Below, piece by piece: positions 3,217 through 50,187 of a stretch of DNA of 51,014 nt (the stretch's first letter is position 1; the number at the start of each line of letters is the position of its first letter). The DNA is from Escherichia phage tiwna, in the sequence record NC_054896.1; one strand, 5' to 3'. The notes under the pieces are model-generated. The model saw nothing but the letters and a program-made list of their open reading frames with translations, was not told the DNA's origin and searched no databases. A program made the translations under genes and the position numbers.

Positions 3217-3507
3217 ATGGCAAACAAAACTTACCGCAAACTACTGGTTAACGCTTTTGAAAACATCGCGCAGTGTAACAAGTGGAACGACTCTAAACAC
3301 TCGCCAGTCACAATGAAGCGCGCCGGATTCAAAAATGCTCGTTCATGGGCGCGAGCTTTCGCAGCTTGCTATATGCCGGATGGCGGACTAGGAGCGATGG
3401 ACGATTTTTTGATCAACATGATAGAGGAAGCGGCGCGAGAGGATCGACCGCTGACACAGCTAGATTTTGATGACTTCGCGCGCGATGAGCTTTACTATCT
3501 GAGCTAA
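3217..3507 (+). CDS. hypothetical protein (96 aa)
   Basis: RBS aagggg before ATG; stop immediately followed by the box at 3508. Confidence 0.5.
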   Translation: MANKTYRKLLVNAFENIAQCNKWNDSKHSPVTMKRAGFKNARSWARAFAACYMPDGGLGAMDDFLINMIEEAAREDRPLTQLDFDDFARDELYYLS

Positions 3508-3525
3508 TAGCACTTTTTGTTAAAA
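3508..3525 (+). promoter_or_regulatory. conserved box followed by a hairpin
   Basis: TAGCACTTTTTGTTAAAA; hairpin aaggggcatttgataaagtgccctt. Confidence 0.45.
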
Positions 3526-3582
3526 CTTCCGAAGGGGCATTTGATAAAGTGCCCTTATTGAAGCGAAACAGAGGAAAGCGCA

Positions 3583-6160: not shown

Positions 6161-7728
6161 TGATCATATGGGAAGATTTGACGGCGGCGCAAAAGCGAGC
6201 CATTAAAGAAATCAGTGAGCATTCATTCGAAAAGATGATCAGAATCTGGTTCCAATTATTGCAGGGGCAAAAATTCCAGAGCAACTGGCATTTTAGCTTA
6301 TTGTGCAGTGAGGTAGAGAAGATCATCAATGGAGAGTCGCAGAATGTGATTTTCAACATTACGCCAGGTAGCGGCAAGACTGAGATTTTCTCGATCCACA
6401 TGCCACCCTACGCGTCATTGAAAAGCCGGAAAGTGAGAAACCTTAACCTTTCGTTTAGTGATGGCCTTGTCCAGCAAAACAGCAACCGGATAAAGGAGAT
6501 TATCGGTTCTCCTGAGTGGCAAGAGCTATGGCCTGGAAAACTGGCAAAGGCGAGCGCTAAAGATCTGATAGTCACCGAAGGCGGCAAGGTTAAATTGCAA
6601 GTTAACTCACGTTCTATTGGCGGCCAGGTAACAGGTTTGCGTGGCGGCTATATGGATGATGGTTTTACTGGTATGCTGGTTCTTGACGATCCAGACAAGC
6701 CGGATGATATGCTTTCTAAGGTCAAGCGCGAGGCTATTCACATGCGGTTAAAAAACACAGTGCGATCGCGTCGAATGAAAGACACCACGCCAATTGTTAT
6801 GGTGCAACAGCGACTACACGTTAATGATTCCACCTGGTTCATGCTTAATGGCGGGATGGGTGGTATTGAGTTTAAAGTCGTGAGCATTCCGGCGCTGGTT
6901 ACGAAAGAATACCGCGAAACGCTTCCTGATTGGTTGAAGCCTGAATTTGATCGTGATGTGCTGTCAAGTAAGCCAGTGATGATAGATGGCGTCGCTCATT
7001 ATTCATTTTGGCCTGCGAAGGAAAGCGCGGAGGAGTTGCTTGCATTGCGCAATGCAGATCCTTACACGTTCGCCAGCCAATACCAACAGCAACCAATCGC
7101 GCTTGGCGGGAACGTGTTTAAAACAGAGTGGTTCCAGTATTACGGAAGCGGCGAAAAGTGCGCACTACCAAAACCGGATCGCTTTGAATACACATTTATT
7201 ACTGGAGATACCGCGCAGAAGGCCGGAGAGCTTAACGACTATTCGGTTTTTTGTTATTGGGGGATGTATAAGAATCGCGTTTACTTCATTGATGGCATTC
7301 GCGGAAAGTGGGAAGCGCCGGATCTTGAATTAAATTTTATTGCCTTCGTTAACCAGTGCTGGAAGCGCAATAAGGAGTGTGGCAGCTTGCGACGTATCCA
7401 CATTGAGGATAAGGCCAGCGGCACGGGTTTGATTCAGGGGGCCAAAAAGAAGATCCCGATTGATATAAATCCCGTTCAGCGAAGCAATGACAAGGTGACG
7501 CGAGCAATGGACGCCGCGCCAGTAATGAGGGCCGGACGTGTGGCGCTGCCAGAAAATCACCCCATGCTGCCTGAGATACTGGCAGAGGTTGCAGCATTCA
7601 CTTTTGATGATTCTCATCCCCATGATGATATTGTCGATAATATAGTTGATGCTGTTAACGTCGAAATGAATTTGGCAGATGATCCGGTAGCAAGGATGAA
7701 AAAGCTGGCAGGTCTACGCAATAAATAG
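6160..7728 (+). CDS. terL: terminase large subunit
   Basis: Walker A TPGSGKTE in the N-terminal ATPase, acidic nuclease-type C-terminus, 522 aa, precedes portal. Confidence 0.8.
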   Translation: MIIWEDLTAAQKRAIKEISEHSFEKMIRIWFQLLQGQKFQSNWHFSLLCSEVEKIINGESQNVIFNITPGSGKTEIFSIHMPPYASLKSRKVRNLNLSFSDGLVQQNSNRIKEIIGSPEWQELWPGKLAKASAKDLIVTEGGKVKLQVNSRSIGGQVTGLRGGYMDDGFTGMLVLDDPDKPDDMLSKVKREAIHMRLKNTVRSRRMKDTTPIVMVQQRLHVNDSTWFMLNGGMGGIEFKVVSIPALVTKEYRETLPDWLKPEFDRDVLSSKPVMIDGVAHYSFWPAKESAEELLALRNADPYTFASQYQQQPIALGGNVFKTEWFQYYGSGEKCALPKPDRFEYTFITGDTAQKAGELNDYSVFCYWGMYKNRVYFIDGIRGKWEAPDLELNFIAFVNQCWKRNKECGSLRRIHIEDKASGTGLIQGAKKKIPIDINPVQRSNDKVTRAMDAAPVMRAGRVALPENHPMLPEILAEVAAFTFDDSHPHDDIVDNIVDAVNVEMNLADDPVARMKKLAGLRNK

Positions 7729-7743
7729 CACTAATTGCTAAAA
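7726..7743 (+). promoter_or_regulatory. conserved box (spacer variant CTAAT) after terL, with atypical spacing to TATAAT at 7749-7754
   Basis: TAGCACTAATTGCTAAAA; half-sites preserved. Confidence 0.4.
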
Positions 7744-7755
7744 AGTTATATAATC

Positions 7756-7782
7756 AAGGCTGGATTTTTCCAGCCTTTTTTA
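7756..7782 (+). terminator. rho-independent terminator after terL
   Basis: Hairpin ggctggatttttccagcc followed by a T-run. Confidence 0.6.
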
Positions 7783-7798
7783 TTATGGAGATTTGACT

Positions 7799-9091
7799 AT
7801 GAGCGAAAAAACAAGGCTAGTTAAGGCCGATGGATACAACGAGATTTTCAAGGGTAGCAAGGGCAATGGGCGTGTGGAGTTGCCTTTCTTTATGCAAGGG
7901 TTCGAATACACCACGCACGCTGATTTTTACATTCGCGACGGCCTAGCGAAACGAATCATCGACGTTGTTCCAGAAGAAATGGTGACACCTGGATTTAATA
8001 TTGATGGCGTGGAAGATGAGGAGAGTTTTAGATCTTTGTGGGATGAGAAGCGACTAAACGATAAAATCATTGATGCGCTTTGCTGGTCGCGTCTTTTTGG
8101 TGGCGCTGCAATCGTGGCAATCGTTCAGGATGGCAGGGCATTAAAGTCACCTGTAGCGCCTGGTGCAATCCTTGAAGATGTTCGCGTTTACGATCGCTTT
8201 CAGGTTCGCGTAGAAAAGCGAGAAACTAATCCACGCAAGGTACGATATGGTGAACCATTAATTTACACCATTGCACCTGGTGCCGACTTGCCAGAATACC
8301 AGGTTCACTATTCGCGAGTCTGTATCATCGACGGTGAGCGGCTACCGAATCAGCGACGTCAGTCAAATGATGGTTGGGGTGAGTCGATCTTGAATAAGCG
8401 ACTTGTTGAGGCCATTTGTGATTATAACTACTGCGAAAACTTAGCAACTCAATTGTTGCGACGTAAGCAACAGGCGGTATGGAAAGCTAAAGGTCTTGCT
8501 GATCTTTGTGATGATGATGATGGTGTTAACGCCGCACGTTTGCGCCTTGCTCAAGTTGATGATGAGGGTGGCGTAGGCCGTGCGATCGGCATTGATGCGG
8601 AAGATGAGGAATATGATGTTTTAAATTCTGATATTTCCGGCGTCGATTCATTCCTGGAAAAGAAGATGGATCGCATTGTATCGCTTTCCGGCATCCATGA
8701 AATCATCCTCAAAAATAAGAACGTTGGCGGTGTTAGCGCGAGCCAAAACACGGCGCTTGAAACCTTCTACAAGCTGATCGATCGAAAGCGAAAGGAAGAA
8801 TACAAACCAATCCTTGAATTTCTGATCCCGTTCCTGATTCAAGAGGAAGAATGGAGTATTCAGTTTGCGCCGTTAAGCGTTCCCAGCGAAAAGGACCAGG
8901 CCGAGATCTTGAACAAGAATATTGATTCTTTGAGCAAGGCTATTGACGGTCAATTCATGGATACAGAGGAGGCGCGCGACACATTGCGAGCCATTGCGCC
9001 TAACGTTAAACTAAAAGACGGCAATAACATTAAATTACCTGAGCAGGACGTAGAGCCGGAGCCAGGAACAACCGAGGGTAGCAATCAATGA
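7799..9091 (+). CDS. portal protein
   Basis: About 430 aa directly after terL; GGAG 8 nt before ATG 7799; acidic C-terminus. Confidence 0.7.
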   Translation: MSEKTRLVKADGYNEIFKGSKGNGRVELPFFMQGFEYTTHADFYIRDGLAKRIIDVVPEEMVTPGFNIDGVEDEESFRSLWDEKRLNDKIIDALCWSRLFGGAAIVAIVQDGRALKSPVAPGAILEDVRVYDRFQVRVEKRETNPRKVRYGEPLIYTIAPGADLPEYQVHYSRVCIIDGERLPNQRRQSNDGWGESILNKRLVEAICDYNYCENLATQLLRRKQQAVWKAKGLADLCDDDDGVNAARLRLAQVDDEGGVGRAIGIDAEDEEYDVLNSDISGVDSFLEKKMDRIVSLSGIHEIILKNKNVGGVSASQNTALETFYKLIDRKRKEEYKPILEFLIPFLIQEEEWSIQFAPLSVPSEKDQAEILNKNIDSLSKAIDGQFMDTEEARDTLRAIAPNVKLKDGNNIKLPEQDVEPEPGTTEGSNQ

Positions 9092-9853: not shown

Positions 9854-10969
9854 ATGAAGGCAAAACAAAGATTTGATAGCGCCAAAGTAAAGGCGCACTT
9901 TGATGATAACGGGTTTTTAGTTGATCGCCCTATCGTGGCGCGAATTGGTTTGCAAGTCTATCAGACTCCTTTCGGTGAGCGCAGAGAATTTCGTCCGGCG
10001 TCCGAAGTATTCAAGGCCGACTCGCTCGCCACCTTCGCAGGTAAGCCAGTCACGGTTGGTCACGTCACGGTAACGCCAGAAAACGCCGAAAAGGTTGTGG
10101 TTGGTTCTTGTGCTGGCGCTGGCGTGCCGAACGGGATCGGCGTAGAGGTTCCGTTAAGCATTTACTCAAAACGAGCAATCGAAAGCGCGAAGAAGCGAGA
10201 CACGGCGGAAATTTCGGTTGGTTATACATCGGTTGATATTGATAAACCAGGCTGGGGCAATAATAAAACTGGTGAGTACGTTTTCGATGAGGATGTTAGC
10301 GAAGACTGGAAACCTGATTCTCCTGATTGGGTTAAGTTTGATGCAATCCAGACTGAAATCAAGGTAAACCACATCGCGTTAGTTTTCAGAGGCCGTGCTG
10401 GTATCGCAAAATTAAACCTTGATAGTCAGCAAGATTTTCCGTATAGTGACGAAGTTATTAACAACAAAGAGGATCAAATCATGACTGTAAAAATTAAACT
10501 GGATGGCGCTGTAGAATTTGATGTTCCGAAAGCAGTTGCGGATCACATTGAATCACTGAAAGCTGATGCCAAAGCACAGAAAGAAAAGGCGGACGGCTTG
10601 GAAGCTGAGCGCGATGCGCTGCAATCCAAAGTAGATGGCATTCAGGATCAGATTGATACCGCAGTCAAGAAGGCCAAAGAAGATGCCGAGCAATATGCTC
10701 AATTAGTGGCAGACGCTAAAGAGTTAGGCATCAAGTGCGACGGTCTGGATGCGAAAGCAATCAAGGTTGCATACATCAAAGAAGTCATGGGCAATGACGT
10801 TTCCGATAAAACTGATGCCTATATCGAAACAGCTTTCGACATCGCCAAAAACTCTGATAAAATGGCGGCGCAGCGTAAGAGCATTAAAGGTGACTCTTTC
10901 GCGAATGAAAAGCAGGATGACGCAGGTTCTAAGCTGAATCCTAACGCTCGTTTTGAGAAACTGAAATAA
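9854..10969 (+). CDS. putative capsid scaffolding (possibly protease-scaffold) protein
   Basis: Long C-terminal coiled-coil-like region rich in A/K/E/D; located between head morphogenesis and capsid genes. Confidence 0.45.
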   Translation: MKAKQRFDSAKVKAHFDDNGFLVDRPIVARIGLQVYQTPFGERREFRPASEVFKADSLATFAGKPVTVGHVTVTPENAEKVVVGSCAGAGVPNGIGVEVPLSIYSKRAIESAKKRDTAEISVGYTSVDIDKPGWGNNKTGEYVFDEDVSEDWKPDSPDWVKFDAIQTEIKVNHIALVFRGRAGIAKLNLDSQQDFPYSDEVINNKEDQIMTVKIKLDGAVEFDVPKAVADHIESLKADAKAQKEKADGLEAERDALQSKVDGIQDQIDTAVKKAKEDAEQYAQLVADAKELGIKCDGLDAKAIKVAYIKEVMGNDVSDKTDAYIETAFDIAKNSDKMAAQRKSIKGDSFANEKQDDAGSKLNPNARFEKLK

Positions 10970-10981
10970 GGAGTAATTAAA

Positions 10982-11491
10982 ATGGCTAAAATTGGAGCAA
11001 GTTATTTTGACACTATGGCGCGTGCGCTTCCTGGTCAGGTATCCGATACTTCGGCATATAACATCGACGGCGCTTGCGTTCTTGACAAGGAAGACGGCAT
11101 CCCAATCCTGGTTGGCGTGGCTGTTAAGCTAAAAGGCGTTGACTCAATGGGTAATAAGCTGATCGACGCTATTTCTGGTGGTGGTGATGTTCCTTATGGC
11201 GTTGGCATCCGATCGCACTTTCAAACCACGGCTGATAATGGTCGAATGGTTTATGAGGCTGGCGGCGGAATCAACGTTATGACCGAGGGCCGCGTTTGGA
11301 TGATTGGCGATGATTCCGATAAGAGCAAAAAGCCATCTTATCGTGAGCCTGTAAAAATTGATGAAAACACTGGCAAGGTTAAAAGTGCTGGTGCTATCAA
11401 TACCAATTGGATTTACACGGGAGATAAAACCACATTTGGAACTGGCGAAGATGTGTTGACTTTGTTTGAAGTTCAGGTGTTCCCTGGTTAA
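10982..11491 (+). CDS. capsid accessory/decoration-like protein, paralog 1
   Basis: Shares blocks (YNIDG, INV/ILT..G.VW, W.FTGD) with the next gene; followed by its own terminator. Confidence 0.45.
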   Translation: MAKIGASYFDTMARALPGQVSDTSAYNIDGACVLDKEDGIPILVGVAVKLKGVDSMGNKLIDAISGGGDVPYGVGIRSHFQTTADNGRMVYEAGGGINVMTEGRVWMIGDDSDKSKKPSYREPVKIDENTGKVKSAGAINTNWIYTGDKTTFGTGEDVLTLFEVQVFPG

Positions 11492-11497
11492 AATGAT

Positions 11498-11523
11498 AGG
11501 CGCTCAATTGAGCGCCTTTTTTA
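11498..11523 (+). terminator. rho-independent terminator
   Basis: Hairpin ggcgctcaattgagcgcc followed by a T-run. Confidence 0.65.
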
Positions 11524-11542
11524 TTATGTAAGGAGAAATGAA

Positions 11543-12325
11543 ATGGCTAAAGATTATTCATCTGTTATGGGTCTTTCTTGCCCTGGTTGTTTGGTTGATT
11601 CTACTCGCTACAATATTGATGGCACTGGAGTTTGCGGATCTGAGTCGATCATTGCTGGCAAAGTTGTTTTCTTCAAAGAGAGGGTGGAAGGTTATAACAT
11701 ATTTGTTGATCATAAAGAGTATGATGCGGTTGTTGCTGGCGTCGCGCTAAGGAGCAACATAACAACAACGGTTAACGAGGAAGATGGGTATTCTGACTAC
11801 AAGGAAGGAGACTCCATCAACATTTTGACAAGAGGTGTCGTATGGTGTGTAACTCAAACAATTGACTCGCCACCTGAACATGGTGATCTTGTTTATGTTA
11901 ACAATGATGGCTTTGTAGCAAAGAGTGACGGGGATGAAATTGTTGATGGCTGGATTTTTACTGGTGATTTTTACAAGTTTGATGAAACAATCAATATCGT
12001 TGGAGTTAGAATCACTCCTTTGCATCACAGAAAATACCCACTAACAGCGGCAATAATTGAGGCAGATGGCGATTATGTTGAGGGAACGCCAACAAGAAAC
12101 AACGTTCAGCTTAAAGTAACCGTAGCTCCTGAGTGGGCAGATGATAAGACTGGTCAATGGGTAATAACAAATCCTCAAAGTCCAAAGGTGGCAACAATTA
12201 GCCAAACAGGTCTGGTTGTTCCTTCTGGAGTTGGGGGTAGTGTTAATGTTAACTGGACCGCAAATGACGGTTCGGGCGTTGCGGATCAGTTCGATATAGT
12301 TTTTGAGAAAACCGTAGGCGAATAA
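11543..12325 (+). CDS. capsid accessory protein, paralog 2, with C-terminal extension
   Basis: AGGAG 7 nt before ATG 11543 (the overlapping track ORF at 11538 is too close to the RBS); N-terminal half is paralogous to 10982. Confidence 0.45.
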   Translation: MAKDYSSVMGLSCPGCLVDSTRYNIDGTGVCGSESIIAGKVVFFKERVEGYNIFVDHKEYDAVVAGVALRSNITTTVNEEDGYSDYKEGDSINILTRGVVWCVTQTIDSPPEHGDLVYVNNDGFVAKSDGDEIVDGWIFTGDFYKFDETINIVGVRITPLHHRKYPLTAAIIEADGDYVEGTPTRNNVQLKVTVAPEWADDKTGQWVITNPQSPKVATISQTGLVVPSGVGGSVNVNWTANDGSGVADQFDIVFEKTVGE

Positions 12326-12351
12326 CTAATAGCATAAAAAAACATTGCACG

Positions 12352-12368
12352 TTTAACAAAAAGTGCTA
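12352..12368 (-). promoter_or_regulatory. conserved palindromic box, inverted copy inside the late operon
   Basis: TTTAACAAAAAGTGCTAT, directly upstream of a terminator-like hairpin and the major capsid RBS. Confidence 0.4.
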
Positions 12369-12374
12369 TCATCT

Positions 12375-12400
12375 AGGCCGTTACATTTAGCGGCCTTTTA
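12375..12400 (+). terminator. weak terminator/attenuator hairpin
   Basis: Hairpin ggccgttacatttagcggcc followed by a short T-run. Confidence 0.4.
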
Positions 12401-12413
12401 TGGAGGAAACAAA

Positions 12414-13385
12414 ATGGCTAAAAAATACGATGAATTAGATGCTACTATTGTAGCAAATCATTTACAGGTTCAGGGCGTTAAGGGTGATGCTTCTGATATG
12501 GGTATTTGGACCGCTCAAGAGCTACACAAGATCCGCTCAACCGCATACGAGAAAGAATATCCGGCAGGTTCCGCGCTTCGCGTATTCCCTGTAACAAACG
12601 AGCTTTCTGATACTGATAAGACTTTTGAGTATCAGACTTTTGACAAGGTTGGCTACGCGAAAATTATCGCCGACTACACCGACGATCTACCGACTGTGGA
12701 TGCGCTGATGACTTCTGAGTTTGGCAAAGTGTTCCGCCTGGGTAACGCTTATCTGATCTCCATTGATGAGATTAAAGCAGGTCAGCGAACTGGCAAGAGC
12801 CTGTCAACTCGCAAGGCTAACGCTGCGCAAAATGCGCATGATCAGATGATTAACTTCCTGGTGTTCAAAGGTTCCAAGCCTCATAAGATCGTTTCCGTTT
12901 TCGATCATCCTAACCTTACGAAAATTGCATCCAAAGGATGGATTAGCAATGACGGCAATACCAAGTTCCCGCAGGTAGCAAGCGATGAACTGGAGGCTGC
13001 AATCGAAACGATCGAGGAAGTGACCAAAGGTCAGCACCGCGCGACCAATATCCTGATCCCGCCGTCCATGCGCAAAGTCCTGACGGTTCGAATGGAAAAT
13101 ACCACTGAAAGTTATCTGGAATACTTCCAGAAGCAAAACGGCGGTATCACTATCGACTCTATCGCAGAGCTTGAGGATATTGACGGCAAAGGTACGAAAG
13201 GTTGCTTGGTTTACGAAAAAGATCCAATGAACATGAGCATTGAGATTCCAGAAGCGTTTAACATGCTTCCTGCGCAGCCAAAAGACCTACATTTCAAGGT
13301 TCCTTGCACTTCCAAGTGTACTGGCCTTACGATTTATCGTCCGTTTACGATGGTGCTCATTACCGGCTTGAAAAAAGCTGAGTAA
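12414..13385 (+). CDS. major capsid protein
   Basis: About 323 aa; strong RBS ggagg; followed by a strong terminator (high-expression structural gene); position in the head module. Confidence 0.6.
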   Translation: MAKKYDELDATIVANHLQVQGVKGDASDMGIWTAQELHKIRSTAYEKEYPAGSALRVFPVTNELSDTDKTFEYQTFDKVGYAKIIADYTDDLPTVDALMTSEFGKVFRLGNAYLISIDEIKAGQRTGKSLSTRKANAAQNAHDQMINFLVFKGSKPHKIVSVFDHPNLTKIASKGWISNDGNTKFPQVASDELEAAIETIEEVTKGQHRATNILIPPSMRKVLTVRMENTTESYLEYFQKQNGGITIDSIAELEDIDGKGTKGCLVYEKDPMNMSIEIPEAFNMLPAQPKDLHFKVPCTSKCTGLTIYRPFTMVLITGLKKAE

Positions 13386-13395
13386 TTAGATAACA

Positions 13396-13423
13396 TGGGG
13401 AGCCTTAAGGGTTCCCCTTTTTT
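13396..13423 (+). terminator. rho-independent terminator after the major capsid gene
   Basis: Hairpin ggggagccttaagggttcccc followed by a T-run. Confidence 0.7.
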
Positions 13424-13441
13424 ATTTATGGAGTGCATAAA

Positions 13442-13708
13442 ATGAGCAAAAATTTAAAACTTAAAGTAACTGGCGTTTGCATGATTATTATGGACGGTAA
13501 GCGTTATCATCCTGGTGATGAAATTGAAATTGAATCTGAACGCATTAATGATTCCGCAATTGAATACCTGATCGCTCGCGGTGATGTGGAAGTTAAAGAC
13601 AATTCCGAAATTAACGAGCAAATCAAGGCGAAAGCGGAGAAGAAGCGCAAAAAAGATCCTACCGAGGGTAAGAGCCGCAAAGAGCTAGAGGACGGCGGCG
13701 AATATTAA
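13442..13708 (+). CDS. hypothetical head-associated protein (88 aa)
   Basis: GGAG 8 nt before ATG 13442. Confidence 0.45.
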
Positions 13709-16100: not shown

Positions 16101-16119
16101 TTTTAACAAAAAGTGCTAT
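16101..16119 (-). promoter_or_regulatory. conserved palindromic box, inverted copy abutting the chaperone RBS
   Basis: TTTTAACAAAAAGTGCTAT immediately followed by AAGGAG and ATG 16134. Confidence 0.4.
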
Positions 16120-16133
16120 AAGGAGATCTTGAG

Positions 16134-16451
16134 ATGGCAAAGATGAAACTAACGTTAGGCCCACTGCCTGATTTTAAGCTACCTGTTTCTTTCGTGCTTC
16201 CAAATGGTGATGAGCAAGTTATTGTTTTCACAGTACGCCACAAGAAGGCAAGCGAGATTCACGAGCGATACACGGCAGAAAAGCCGATGAGTGACGTAGA
16301 AATGATCACCTTCCTTGCTTCCGGTTGGGATCTGGATGATGAATTTAATGAGGAGAACGTTGCTAAATTGCTGGATTATTACCCGTCTGCGTCATTATCG
16401 CTGACTGGTCATTATATGAAAGCGCTTGCGGGGCAGCGGGTAAAAAACTAA
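16134..16451 (+). CDS. tail assembly chaperone (lambda G-like)
   Basis: About 105 aa directly upstream of the tape measure gene; ends just past a slippery heptamer. Confidence 0.6.
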   Translation: MAKMKLTLGPLPDFKLPVSFVLPNGDEQVIVFTVRHKKASEIHERYTAEKPMSDVEMITFLASGWDLDDEFNEENVAKLLDYYPSASLSLTGHYMKALAGQRVKN

Positions 16452-29719: not shown

Positions 29720-29750
29720 AAAAGCCCCGCATATGCGGGGCATATTTTAT
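29720..29750. terminator. bidirectional terminator between ssb (+) and the tail fibre gene (-)
   Basis: Hairpin gccccgcatatgcggggc with flanking A- and T-runs. Confidence 0.65.
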
Positions 29751-31879
29751 TTATCACTTAACTTTGAAATTAAATTTCTAATTTCGTTAATTTCTGATTT
29801 TAACATTTCTATTTCCTCTTGCTGTTTTTTTATTAATTCCTCTTGTCTATCTGAGTCAGAGATCATCTCATTTATAGCATTTACAAGCAATGCAGTAACG
29901 CCGCTATAACTTACACCCAAGTAATCAGAGTCTGATATTTTGTAAACAGCCTCCGGTAAAACATTTTGCACATCTTGAGCTATTACCCCAGCCTCCTCCG
30001 AATATATAGAATATTCATCTTCATAAAGATTACTGCGCTTAAAGTAAGTGTAACCCTTGATTGACTTCACTTTTTCTCTAGCGCCCTTAATCTCCTTCAA
30101 GTTTGCTTTCAGTCTAATATCTGACGTGCTGACCCATTGAACACATGAGGCGTAACCAGCATCATTAAATCCGAAAATCGCACCCCTTACATTAAAATGA
30201 GCCGCGCAACCTCCACTGCTATATCTGACAACATCAAGACCAGCAACCCATTCATAACCCCACCGAACGGCCTTAAAGATGCTTGAGGCTGCATCATCTG
30301 TTGGCAACTCAACAAGAAGACCAGACGCTCTATCCCTCCAGTCAGTAAAAGCACCTCCATATACTTGACCGCCAATTAGAGCATTGCCTCCGCCAATTCT
30401 AGATCCTGAAACTCTAATGCCATTTGCGTTATTATCAATAGGCCATATGGTTAAAAGACCGTTAAGGTGAGCTTGATATGCCTCCCATGTAAAAACATTT
30501 CTACCGTTTGCGAATGTCTGTAATATGCCGTCCCCACCTTGCTTAAACCCGGTGTCGCTATCACCTATAACTAACGAATTAGACCCAAGTGAATTTATAA
30601 TGCCTCTACCAATTGTTATTGTATTGTAATTTATGGCGTTTCCGCTTTCGTCAAATTGATAATAGTTTGTATCTCCACCTTCTCTTGTTACCTGTATTGT
30701 TGCTTTAGCTGTACCACCTATAATTTCATTGTAGACCCTTGAGTATGAAAGCTGCACACCTTCTGCGTTCTTGTTTCTAAGGTAAAGAATGCCTGATGCT
30801 TCTCCGTTGTTGTTATCAAGATTTACCCCCAAGAATACAGGGATATGATTTGTCGCAAGCCCTAAATTGTGCCTTACTCCATCGGGAGTTGTTGCGCCTG
30901 TACCGCCAGCGCCAATAGAAAGCGCATATGTAGCGTTATCACTATTACTTGCAACTCTCCATTCTCCATTGTTAGCAATCCTCAATTCATAGCTTGCTTG
31001 CGGATTAGCGAAGCTGTTGTAATCGCCAGGCGTTGAATGAGAAGCCGGATCATTGCTAATTACCGCTTGAACCTGCAACACTTTTCTTGCTTCAGCCTTA
31101 TCAGTAAGATCATTAAGGTTTTGATCCTTATGGAGAATATTTTCAGGATTTACTTGTTGCGCCCATTGCATAGCCTCATCTCTTGCAGATTCAGCGGCTG
31201 ATTTTGCACTTTCAGCATAATTCTTGGCATTGTCAGCCTCATTTTTAGCATTAATTGCGCCATCTCTAGCTGATTCAGCCTCTGATTTAATGCTTGTAAC
31301 CTCAACAACTGCAGAGTCCTTTATTTGCTGAGTCTGATCTTTAATTGATTGAGCCTCGTTTTTTATGGCGTTAGTTTCGCTTACTGCGTCATCTTTGATC
31401 TTCTGAGTTTCAGCTAGGGCAGAATCCTTTATCTGTTGAGTGTCATTTTTTAATTGCTCAGTGGCTGCGCGATCTGTTGCTACTTGTTGCGCAGACTCCT
31501 TAACTTGATTCACCAGATCCTTTAAGCCATCCAAATCAAAATCTTTAAAAAACTCTATTGCTTCTGCAATTTCTGTTTCCTTGCTCTGGTAATAACGCAA
31601 AGTTTCCGCTACATCCTGCGCAAGCCCGTCAACCGTTAACGAGTCATGAAGCAAGATCAGGTAATTTGTTTGCTGAACTACTTCACCGCCAGTAGTAATG
31701 GCGCGAATGCTTGTATCGCTAATCACCTCTGTGATCACGGCAGCTTGCAAAGGTTGAGTAAGAAAGAAAATAGTTGCACCTGGGCGAATCAATGTTAATT
31801 GCTCGCGCCATTTTGTTTCGTAACCAGTAACATAACCTTGAGCGTCCATCGACGCTTGGCCTTGTCTGTAAATCGCCAT
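29747..31879 (-). CDS. tail fibre protein with C-terminal intramolecular chaperone (S74-type) domain
   Basis: C-terminal SDIRLK motif and following about 110 aa resemble self-cleaving chaperone domains; coiled-coil Q/K-rich region; GGAGG RBS before ATG 31879. Confidence 0.65.
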
Positions 31880-31897
31880 TTGTAAAATCCTCCTAAA

Positions 31898-31914
31898 TAG
31901 CACTTTTTGCTAAT
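31898..31914 (+). promoter_or_regulatory. conserved palindromic box (perfect palindrome TAGCA-N5-TGCTA) abutting the tail fibre RBS
   Basis: TAGCACTTTTTGCTAAT; lies between the primase terminator and the tail fibre RBS. Confidence 0.4.
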
Positions 31915-42369: not shown

Positions 42370-42422
42370 TCGTTAGCTTCTCCTTTGTGGGCCGTAAATT
42401 TTAACGGCCCAATACTACCCCG

Positions 42423-42441
42423 TTTTGTCAAAAAGTGCTAT
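42423..42441 (-). promoter_or_regulatory. conserved box (variant TTGACAAAA), minus orientation
   Basis: TAGCACTTTTTGACAAAA on the minus strand; TAG is the stop of gene 42438..42659. Confidence 0.5.
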
Positions 42442-49965: not shown

Positions 49966-50118
49966 ATGGCTACATGGATTCTACTGATTCTTATGATTGA
50001 TGGCGGCGTTGACCATATCGAAATGAATAGCCAGCAATCTTGCATTGAGGCACGAGAGCAGATCAAGAACAACAACAGGTTTTATGCGTACACTCACACG
50101 CTATGTATTAAGAAATAG
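49966..50118 (+). CDS. small membrane peptide (50 aa)
   Basis: RBS gaggtgagag; hydrophobic N-terminus; TAG stop is the first triplet of the box at 50116; below the ORF-track cutoff. Confidence 0.35.
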   Translation: MATWILLILMIDGGVDHIEMNSQQSCIEAREQIKNNNRFYAYTHTLCIKK

Positions 50119-50133
50119 CACTTTTTGTTAAAA
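50116..50133 (+). promoter_or_regulatory. conserved box with -10 TATAAT at 50152-50157
   Basis: TAGCACTTTTTGTTAAAA then 18 bp then TATAAT. Confidence 0.5.
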
Positions 50134-50187
50134 CTCAAATGTGGGGCCAGGTATAATGGCCTCACTTTCAACGAAGGAGATAAAACG

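Follow-up and report, generated by a model that had tools for sequence, protein, structure and literature searches.

Tandem paralogous head genes of Escherichia phage tiwna very probably encode a T1-type two-component capsid cement

A cryo-EM study of 2025 resolved the two-component cement of T1-like phages (PMC11945409). The T=7 head of T1 is built from 415 capsid proteins and carries 80 homotrimers of gp49 together with 60 heterotrimers, each made of two gp49 subunits and one gp48 subunit, and these cement trimers, whose fold was termed β-tulip-like, occupy the three-fold and quasi-three-fold positions of the shell (PMC11945409). The N-terminus of gp49 inserts towards the inner surface of the shell and gp48 is found on the outside only, with its C-terminal Ig domain seen as weak, flexible protruding density, for which the T1 authors suggested a role as an adsorption aid; a figure legend further states that, of the six trimers that surround a hexon, two are heterotrimers (PMC11945409). 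Structures are available for T1 gp49 and gp48 (PDB 9KZJ) and for phage FCWL1, including its gp29 (9KMG, 9KMH), and the FCWL1 portal-vertex model contains five gp29 chains (PDB entry).

Several other capsids can be set beside this system. The families PF22758 and PF23982 include the single-component systems of Pam3 (gp6), E217 (gp24), XM1 (gp53), TW1 (gp56) and HFTV1, in which mostly one protein is present as homotrimers; for Borrelia BB1 two decorator proteins, P03 and P04, are listed. The β-tulip proteins of lambda (gpD) and P74-26 are likewise trimers at three-fold sites that stabilise the expanded capsid. Exposed and flexible Ig-like capsid domains, with a proposed function in weak adherence, are also carried by T4 Hoc, T5 pb10 and phiCrAss001 (PMC11945409). 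In phage TLS (HtjA, gp34, and HdeC, gp35) and in Hanrivervirus, tandem paralogues are found at the same position as the pair described here and with the same intervening terminator, but the second paralogue is 144–146 aa long and is without an Ig domain.

We have analysed a 51,014-nucleotide stretch of Escherichia phage tiwna (NC_054896.1), referred to here as the window. Its cement-pair region is ~93.6% identical to that of Escherichia phage FritzSarasin, and the identity of this region to tunus, atuna, tonnikala and JK16 is ~93%, which by sequence places the window in Warwickvirus (Tempevirinae, Drexlerviridae), as FritzSarasin is classified. The head module runs in the order portal (a match to PF06381), Mu-F-like minor capsid protein, prohead protease/scaffold, ORF1, ORF2, major capsid protein and a small DUF7444 protein (Table 1). 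The GTG at 12363, which the list of open reading frames gave as the start of the capsid gene, was rejected, the true start being the ATG at 12414. ARAGORN found no tRNA in the window.

Table 1. Coordinates and evidence for the features of the cement locus (positions in the window).
Feature	Coordinates	Strand	Evidence or sequence
Prohead protease/scaffold gene	9854..10969	+	Pfam DUF2213 6.8e-25; PHROG 530 head maturation protease 3.8e-109; FritzSarasin annotation prohead protease
ORF1, cement protein I, 169 aa	10982..11491	+	Very probable orthologue of T1 gp49; predicted major trimer-forming cement subunit
Intrinsic terminator between paralogues	11498..11517	+	AGGCGCUC-AAUU-GAGCGCCU then UUUUUAUU; terminator scan match
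ORF2 N-terminal cement domain, residues 1-160	11543..12022	+	PF22758; PF23982; BLASTP against ORF1; Foldseek
ORF2 C-terminal Ig-like (Big_2) domain, residues ~165-256	12035..12310	+	Pfam Big_2; AF2; Foldseek; T1 gp48 alignment
Promoter-like element for capsid gene	12345..12372	+	TTGCAC (12345-12350), 16 nt, TGc-TATCAT (12364-12372, extended -10)
Conserved hairpin	12375..12396	+	AGGCCGUUA-CAUU-UAGCGGCCU, then UUUUAU; capsid gene Shine-Dalgarno GGAGG 12402-12406
Major capsid protein gene, 323 aa	12414..13385	+	PF09950 1.5e-53; PHROG 264 9.5e-100; FritzSarasin annotation 972 nt
Intrinsic terminator after capsid gene	13397..13417	+	Scan match: 9-bp stem, 6 GC pairs, then TTTTTTATTT

ORF1 and ORF2 (11543..12325, 260 aa, the stop codon ending at 12325) are ancient paralogues with one common cement fold, to which ORF2 adds a C-terminal Big_2 Ig-like domain. 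A sequence-only reading of this DNA had proposed two tandem genes here that arose by duplication, and both open reading frames are borne out, each with a good Shine-Dalgarno site (AAGGAG at 10968–10973 before the ATG at 10982, and AAGGAG at 11530–11535 before the ATG at 11543). Both proteins start MAK, and the three motifs that this reading had taken as shared are all present, and in the same order, in the two proteins: YNIDG at residue 26 of ORF1 and 23 of ORF2, INVMTEGRVW at residue 97 of ORF1 with INILTRGVVW at 92 of ORF2, and WIYTGD at residue 143 of ORF1 with WIFTGD at 137 of ORF2. Pairwise alignment confirms the paralogy, since BLASTP gave 30% identity over 171 aa (E=9e-14), covering the first ~160 residues end to end, and the pair reached a Smith-Waterman score of 148, where 2000 shuffles gave 35.5 ± 5.9 (maximum 67; z=19). 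Moreover, 17 columns are invariant across 41–51 homologues of both the ORF1 and the ORF2 type. That ORF2 might be a decaying duplicate was considered and rejected, as the reading frame is unbroken, AF2 models the protein with confidence and most of the family keeps the gene.

Both proteins match the Phage_cement family (PF22758, E217 gp24 / Pam3 gp6), with scores of 84.5 bits for ORF1 (1e-23) and 78.4 bits for ORF2 (7.9e-22) against a curated gathering threshold of 27 bits, and both also match PF23982 (XM1 gp53; 9.3e-19 for ORF2). When compared with PDB sequences, ORF1 matched the 158-aa 'cement protein II/decoration protein' of T1 and FCWL1 (9KZJ, 9KMG, 9KMH) at 1e-36, and ORF2 matched the 255-aa 'BIG2 domain-containing protein' (T1 gp48, FCWL1 gp29) at 1.7e-16 over residues 10–245. 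Structure prediction, which the earlier reading had named as a check, gave confident AF2 models (pLDDT 88 for ORF1 and 84 for ORF2) with folds that match the T1/FCWL1 cement proteins, and the cement fold is common to both proteins and the solved PF22758 members; for the N-domain of ORF2, Foldseek gave a TMt of ~0.8 against the FCWL1/T1 cement chains. The ORF2 model has two domains, of which the C-terminal one has seven strands and a pLDDT of ~90. Residues 186–246 match Pfam Big_2 (PF02368, 8.2e-7), and the Foldseek matches for the C-terminus are Big_2-CBM56 (7quz) and the Ig domains of T5 pb6 and lambda gpV. The C-terminal extension had been described as roughly 90 aa long and as possibly surface-exposed; it is present, its length is closer to 100 aa (residues ~161–260), and exposure is supported by the Big_2 fold and by the cryo-EM structures of the homologous T1/FCWL1 proteins. 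A Pfam scan found no match to the gpD family at E≤0.1 for either protein, and ORF2 has no match to the Hoc family. By sequence, the pair thus stands outside the lambda gpD and Hoc families, yet with a predicted gpD-like job and a Hoc-like displayed domain.

The comparison with T1 and FCWL1 extends beyond the proteins. Gene order in these phages is the same and so is the design, which pairs a short cement protein with a cement-Ig fusion; they also have the same Pfam family and the same predicted folds, and the layout in the T1 GenBank record is identical (protease, first cement gene, terminator, second cement gene, promoter, hairpin, capsid gene and terminator). The differences are ones of divergence, with 48% identity between ORF1 and gp49 and 29% between ORF2 and gp48, of an ~11-residue insertion in ORF1 (169 aa against 158 aa in gp49) and of taxonomy, T1 being a Tunavirus. 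Relative to the single-component systems, the window has an extra, diverged paralogue with an Ig domain; relative to Hoc-like proteins it is the anchor that differs, as the Ig domain of ORF2 is fused to a cement-fold trimer subunit, whereas the Hoc-like proteins have a hexamer-centre binding domain. On every feature examined, all of them read from sequence or predicted from it, the two proteins are members of the Phage_cement family and of the T1-type two-component system. The capsid-accessory role suggested earlier is likewise supported by PF22758, the predicted folds, synteny and the T1/FCWL1 cryo-EM of the homologous pair, and the placing of both genes upstream of the major capsid gene was correct, that gene following ORF2. 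We consider it very probable that the two genes together encode the two-component capsid cement of T1-like phages (Drexlerviridae), ORF1 being the orthologue of T1 gp49 and ORF2 that of gp48.

As T1 already provides both a structure and an annotation of this pair, the finding is not new, and the practical value for the window is one of annotation. In the listed Warwickvirus relatives, ORF2 is called a 'hypothetical protein' or, misleadingly, a 'scaffolding protein' or 'zonula occludens toxin', and it could be renamed an Ig-domain cement (decoration) protein. A literature search found neither virion proteomics nor a structure for this phage or for Warwickvirus. The locus offers small testable leads on decoration dosage and on the role of the Ig domain, namely Ig turnover, unequal rates in the paralogues and a terminator conserved in position.

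The T1 and FCWL1 structures suggest how the two proteins would be arranged. After the T=7 HK97-fold shell has formed, ORF1 would trimerise on the three-fold and quasi-three-fold positions, clamping neighbouring capsomers, and ORF2 would take the place of one ORF1 subunit in 60 of the 140 trimers. By analogy with T1, where the Ig-bearing copy is found only inside 2:1 heterotrimers, the proteins would be subunits of cement trimers and not independent decorations, the heterotrimers and the 2:1 ratio being extrapolated to ORF1 and ORF2 from T1 across the 29% identity of ORF2 to gp48. ORF1 is then likely to be the abundant subunit, at ~360 copies, and ORF2 a minor one, at ~60 copies, in agreement with the weaker codon bias of ORF2 and its position behind a terminator. 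The earlier description of both as abundant decoration proteins would consequently hold for the decoration role, but for abundance probably in the case of ORF1 only.

With respect to location, a T=7 lattice has only one class of trimers with 60 members and two per hexon, the penton-adjacent one, so we infer from geometry, the site not being stated in the T1 study (PMC11945409), that the heterotrimers lie next to the pentons. The 60 mixed trimers would then adjoin the five-fold vertices, with the Ig-bearing subunit beside them, and the five gp29 chains at the portal vertex of FCWL1 fit such a vertex-proximal site. ORF2 would be anchored through its cement domain and project the flexible Ig domain outwards, where it would probably make weak contacts with cell-surface or environmental glycans and add no strength to the shell.

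Other arrangements of the second protein have been weighed. The ORF2-type proteins are fast-evolving and of varied architecture, ranging from 143 to 270 aa, and this could be consistent with ORF2 forming homotrimers at a subset of the three-fold sites, or with a stoichiometry other than the two ORF1 to one ORF2 of T1. We regard this as improbable, since in T1 and FCWL1, which are close to each other, ORF2-type proteins are seen as single chains beside ORF1-type chains, with five gp29 at the FCWL1 portal vertex, and the conserved upstream terminator and low codon bias suggest a low dosage of ORF2. Slightly less probable still is that ORF2 is an independent Hoc-like decoration protein, bound to the capsid alone, for example at hexamer centres, and not within a mixed trimer. 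Such a protein would also display an exposed Ig-like domain, as in Hoc and pb10, and ORF2 has just 29–30% identity to any solved cement protein; but its N-terminal 160 residues have the cement fold and the 17 invariant residues of the family, the syntenic proteins of T1 and FCWL1 are resolved inside trimers, and no likeness to the capsid-binding region of Hoc is found in ORF2. A role of both proteins in scaffolding or assembly, with neither retained in the mature virion, as might be read from related GenBank records ('putative scaffolding protein', 'SbcC-like', 'zonula occludens toxin'), is scarcely credible, as the Pfam, PDB sequence and fold matches are to external cement proteins resolved on mature T1/FCWL1 heads, the scaffold is most likely provided by the C-terminal, coiled-coil half of the protease gene upstream (PHROG 530 + 36941), and these annotations, which we reject, are legacy guesses.

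A comparative survey covered the window and 65 loci (T1, TLS, EC147, Domnhall, FritzSarasin and 60 IMG/VR contigs), with 61 usable sequences, window included. The tandem two-gene arrangement was present in 53 of these 61. Within the 53 pairs, the second protein was 250–270 aa, and so long enough for an Ig domain, in 28 (window included) and short, at 143–173 aa, in the remaining 25. Six sequences, five IMG/VR loci and the Webervirus phage Domnhall, had a single cement gene of 168–172 aa, one IMG/VR locus had a different single gene of 169 aa, and one sequence was left unscored because its second gene runs past the end of the fetched stretch. Many relatives thus have an ORF2-type protein that lacks the Ig domain, and Webervirus-type phages have a single gene, so that a capsid can be built without the Ig domain and even without the second paralogue.

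Neighbour joining places the first-gene proteins in a single tight clade, 48–58% identical to ORF1, with the single-gene proteins as its sister, and the second-gene proteins are long-branched and 29–42% identical to ORF2, their long (250–270 aa) and short forms being interleaved in the tree at no fewer than four places. This pattern points to an old duplication with a faster second copy and to repeated loss or gain of the Ig domain. In its N-domain, T1 gp48 resembles ORF1 and ORF2 about equally, and the ORF2 N-domain is no closer to gp48 than to gp49. Because this similarity does not discriminate between the copies, it is synteny and the common Ig domain that support orthology between the second genes, and gene conversion or independent duplication may have occurred in some lineages.

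The DNA between the genes is also conserved in its layout. We scored a rho-independent terminator where a GC-rich stem and short loop are followed by at least 5 U in the 8 nt after the stem, and the hairpin after ORF1 is a terminator by this definition, with an 8-bp stem containing 6 GC pairs, a 4-nt loop and then TTTTTATT (–15 kcal/mol, z=–4.2). All the two-gene loci surveyed have a hairpin and T-run directly behind the first gene, and a rho-independent terminator is annotated at the corresponding site in the T1 GenBank record; the conservation is in position only, since the stem sequences are unrelated between clades. The Shine-Dalgarno site of ORF2 begins 13 nt after the terminator stem, in a terminator-to-ORF2 gap of 25 nt, leaving no room for a promoter between them. 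Upstream of ORF1 there is no terminator, and the 12 nt that separate it from the protease gene hold no hairpin, so these two genes are likely to be co-transcribed. The claim that each cement gene has its own, flanking terminator was thus right for ORF1, where it is strong; after ORF2 the structure is weak or borderline, and the flank before ORF1 has none. The terminator after the capsid gene folds at –18.9 kcal/mol (z=–3.4) and its position is conserved across the surveyed loci. No family was matched when the entire window was compared with Rfam at gathering thresholds, and the hairpins do not belong to known RNA families.

We infer that the expression of ORF2 is limited by read-through of the terminator. 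Codon usage agrees with an unequal dosage of the paralogues, the Fop values, which use an E. coli optimal-codon list, being 0.59 for ORF1 and 0.61 for both the capsid protein and the major tail protein, as against 0.49 for ORF2 and 0.48 for the portal. The DNA layout suggests a relative dosage of ~6 ORF1 to 1 ORF2 to 7 capsid protein that would be set partly by transcription: at the strong terminator only read-through transcripts would continue into ORF2, and the promoter-like element directly upstream of the capsid gene would raise transcription again.

This 28-nt promoter-like element recurs in the gap that separates the last cement gene from the capsid gene, where 56 of the 61 loci with both genes located have it. 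The search required the TTG/TGn/TAnnnT frame and left the 13-nt spacer unconstrained, and that spacer is almost identical in all the loci found. The T1 GenBank record annotates both a promoter and a terminator in this interval. Positions 12353–12369 are an inverted copy of a 17–21-nt repeat that occurs genome-wide; the possibility that this copy acts as an antisense promoter into ORF2 was rejected, as no minus-strand –10-like hexamer lies there at the fixed 21-nt offset.

The conserved hairpin starts 2 nt after the –10 of the promoter-like element and has a 9-bp stem and 4-nt loop (–14.3 kcal/mol, z=–4.1). With only 4 U in its tail, UUUAUGGA, it did not pass the terminator scan, and at this position there are 6 T in close relatives and 0–3 T in others. 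Among unique sequences the stem shows compensatory variants (GCC/GGC in 17, GCU/AGC in 6 and GGC/GCC in 2), and G·U variants occur on the + strand only, which argues for structure at the level of RNA. Because it follows directly on a conserved promoter-like element of the capsid gene, it is not simply the terminator of ORF2; it is a borderline case that may be a weak terminator, a 5'-leader structure or both. A transcription start ~7 nt after the –10 would lie within the 5' arm of the hairpin. As a speculation, read-through RNA would then form the full hairpin and stop there, and capsid transcripts initiated at the promoter would lack the full hairpin and escape.

We tentatively suggest, as something that may well prove wrong, that the DNA punctuation of the cement pair is a conserved, uncharacterised dosage device, composed of the terminator, a repeat-built extended –10 promoter and a co-varying hairpin, for the ~6:1:7 ratio, and that, separately, the 21-nt repeat is the upstream element of a phage-specific promoter class with its –10 at a fixed 21 nt.

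The re-annotation of phage TLS reported a 21-nt repeat of unknown function, given only as a degenerate consensus (PMC11447400), and a full-text literature search for the repeat sequence found no match. In the window, TTAACAAAAA(G/A)TGCTAT is present 20 times with up to three mismatches, against 0.79 expected by chance, and the spacer and –10 of the capsid promoter together form one inverted copy of it. When the sites are read in the orientation of PMC11447400, 16 of 23 in the window and 16 of 24 in T1 have a –10-like hexamer exactly 21 nt downstream, so that the 21-nt repeat and –10 look, from sequence, like a class of phage-specific promoters. Often a conserved CATCGAAAACGA-like motif comes next, and start codons lie ~55–61 nt downstream.

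The element with an inverted copy 5' of the capsid gene is part of a family spread over the whole window, TTAACAAAAA(G/A)TGCTAT (reverse complement ATAGCACTTTTTGTTAA), which has 20 sites when up to three mismatches are allowed, compared with 0.79 expected. The same repeat has been reported in the related phage TLS as a 21-nt direct repeat (PMC11447400). In the reading direction ATAGCAC...TTGTTAA, 16 of 23 sites in the window and 16 of 24 in phage T1 show a -10-like hexamer at a distance of exactly 21 nt 3' of the repeat. The hexamer is often followed by a CATCGAAAACGA-like motif and then by an SD, with the start codon some 55-61 nt downstream. The repeat probably serves as the upstream element in a class of promoters specific to the phage.

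Three copies are inverted relative to the downstream gene, each standing just 5' of the SD of that gene, and the copy before the tape-measure chaperone gene is likewise inverted in T1 (site 18850). Of these three, the capsid copy alone is accompanied by a TTG at 16-nt spacing, giving a predicted sigma-70-like extended -10 promoter. Six surveyed Webervirus-like loci (L005 and L057-L061), whose only cement gene encodes 168-172 aa, retain the repeat-based promoter-like element 5' of the capsid gene, as in the window, and, unlike the window, are without the conserved hairpin after it.

Positions of the repeat and of associated features in the window
Feature	Position	Strand	Detail
Repeat sites (first coordinate)	532, 903, 3507, 7725, 12353, 16103, 26729, 31897, 33459, 35948, 37019, 40263, 42425, 43099, 45298, 45804, 47108, 48438, 48901, 50115		
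Inverted copy, capsid gene	12353-12369	+	hairpin between copy and SD
Inverted copy, tape-measure chaperone gene at 16134	16103-16119	+	just 5' of SD
Inverted copy, 718-aa gene (29747..31903)	31897-31913	-	just 5' of SD
-10 hexamer in loop or between arms of GC-rich inverted repeat	532-580, 903-950, 3507-3560, 42400-42441, 50115-50165		
Hairpin, T-run and SD units	11498-11535, 12375-12406, 13397-13432		
Large terminase/portal gene gap	7725-7800		
Small conserved gene, 88 aa	13445-13708		ATG at 13445; Pfam DUF7444, 1.6e-36

Every hairpin in the late-region stretch of the cement and capsid genes runs through its T-run directly into the SD of the next gene (pattern ...TTTTTAT(T)ATGGAG...), which matches the 'transcripton' layout of T1, where terminators adjoin ribosome-binding sites. 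Between the capsid-gene terminator and the head-tail adaptor gene sits the DUF7444 gene, whose codon bias is high (Fop 0.58, using a list of E. coli optimal codons). Its T1 equivalent, orf 46, is flanked by its own terminators, and the product has no assignment in the cryo-EM model.

At 51014 bp the window is close in length to the complete genomes of relatives (50.5-51.8 kb) and is apparently a complete phage genome in circularly permuted form; its small terminase gene lies near 5.6 kb. Neither tRNA genes nor Rfam families were found in the whole window.

The gap that separates the large terminase gene from the portal gene has an arrangement resembling that 5' of the capsid gene: a repeat copy with three mismatches, TATATAAT, a terminator-like hairpin (AAGGCTGG-ATTTTT-CCAGCCTT) followed by TTTTTATT, and an SD. 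The likely start of the portal gene is the ATG at 7799 and not the TTG at 7793 of the ORF list.

Several of the promoter-like sites associated with the repeat have their -10 hexamer inside a GC-rich inverted repeat, either in its loop or flanked by its two arms, as in GGGCCGT-TAAAATT-TACGGCCC at about 42400. In the capsid-gene hairpin, too, the loop includes TACATT, the hexamer found at the -10 position of sites 45820 and 47124.
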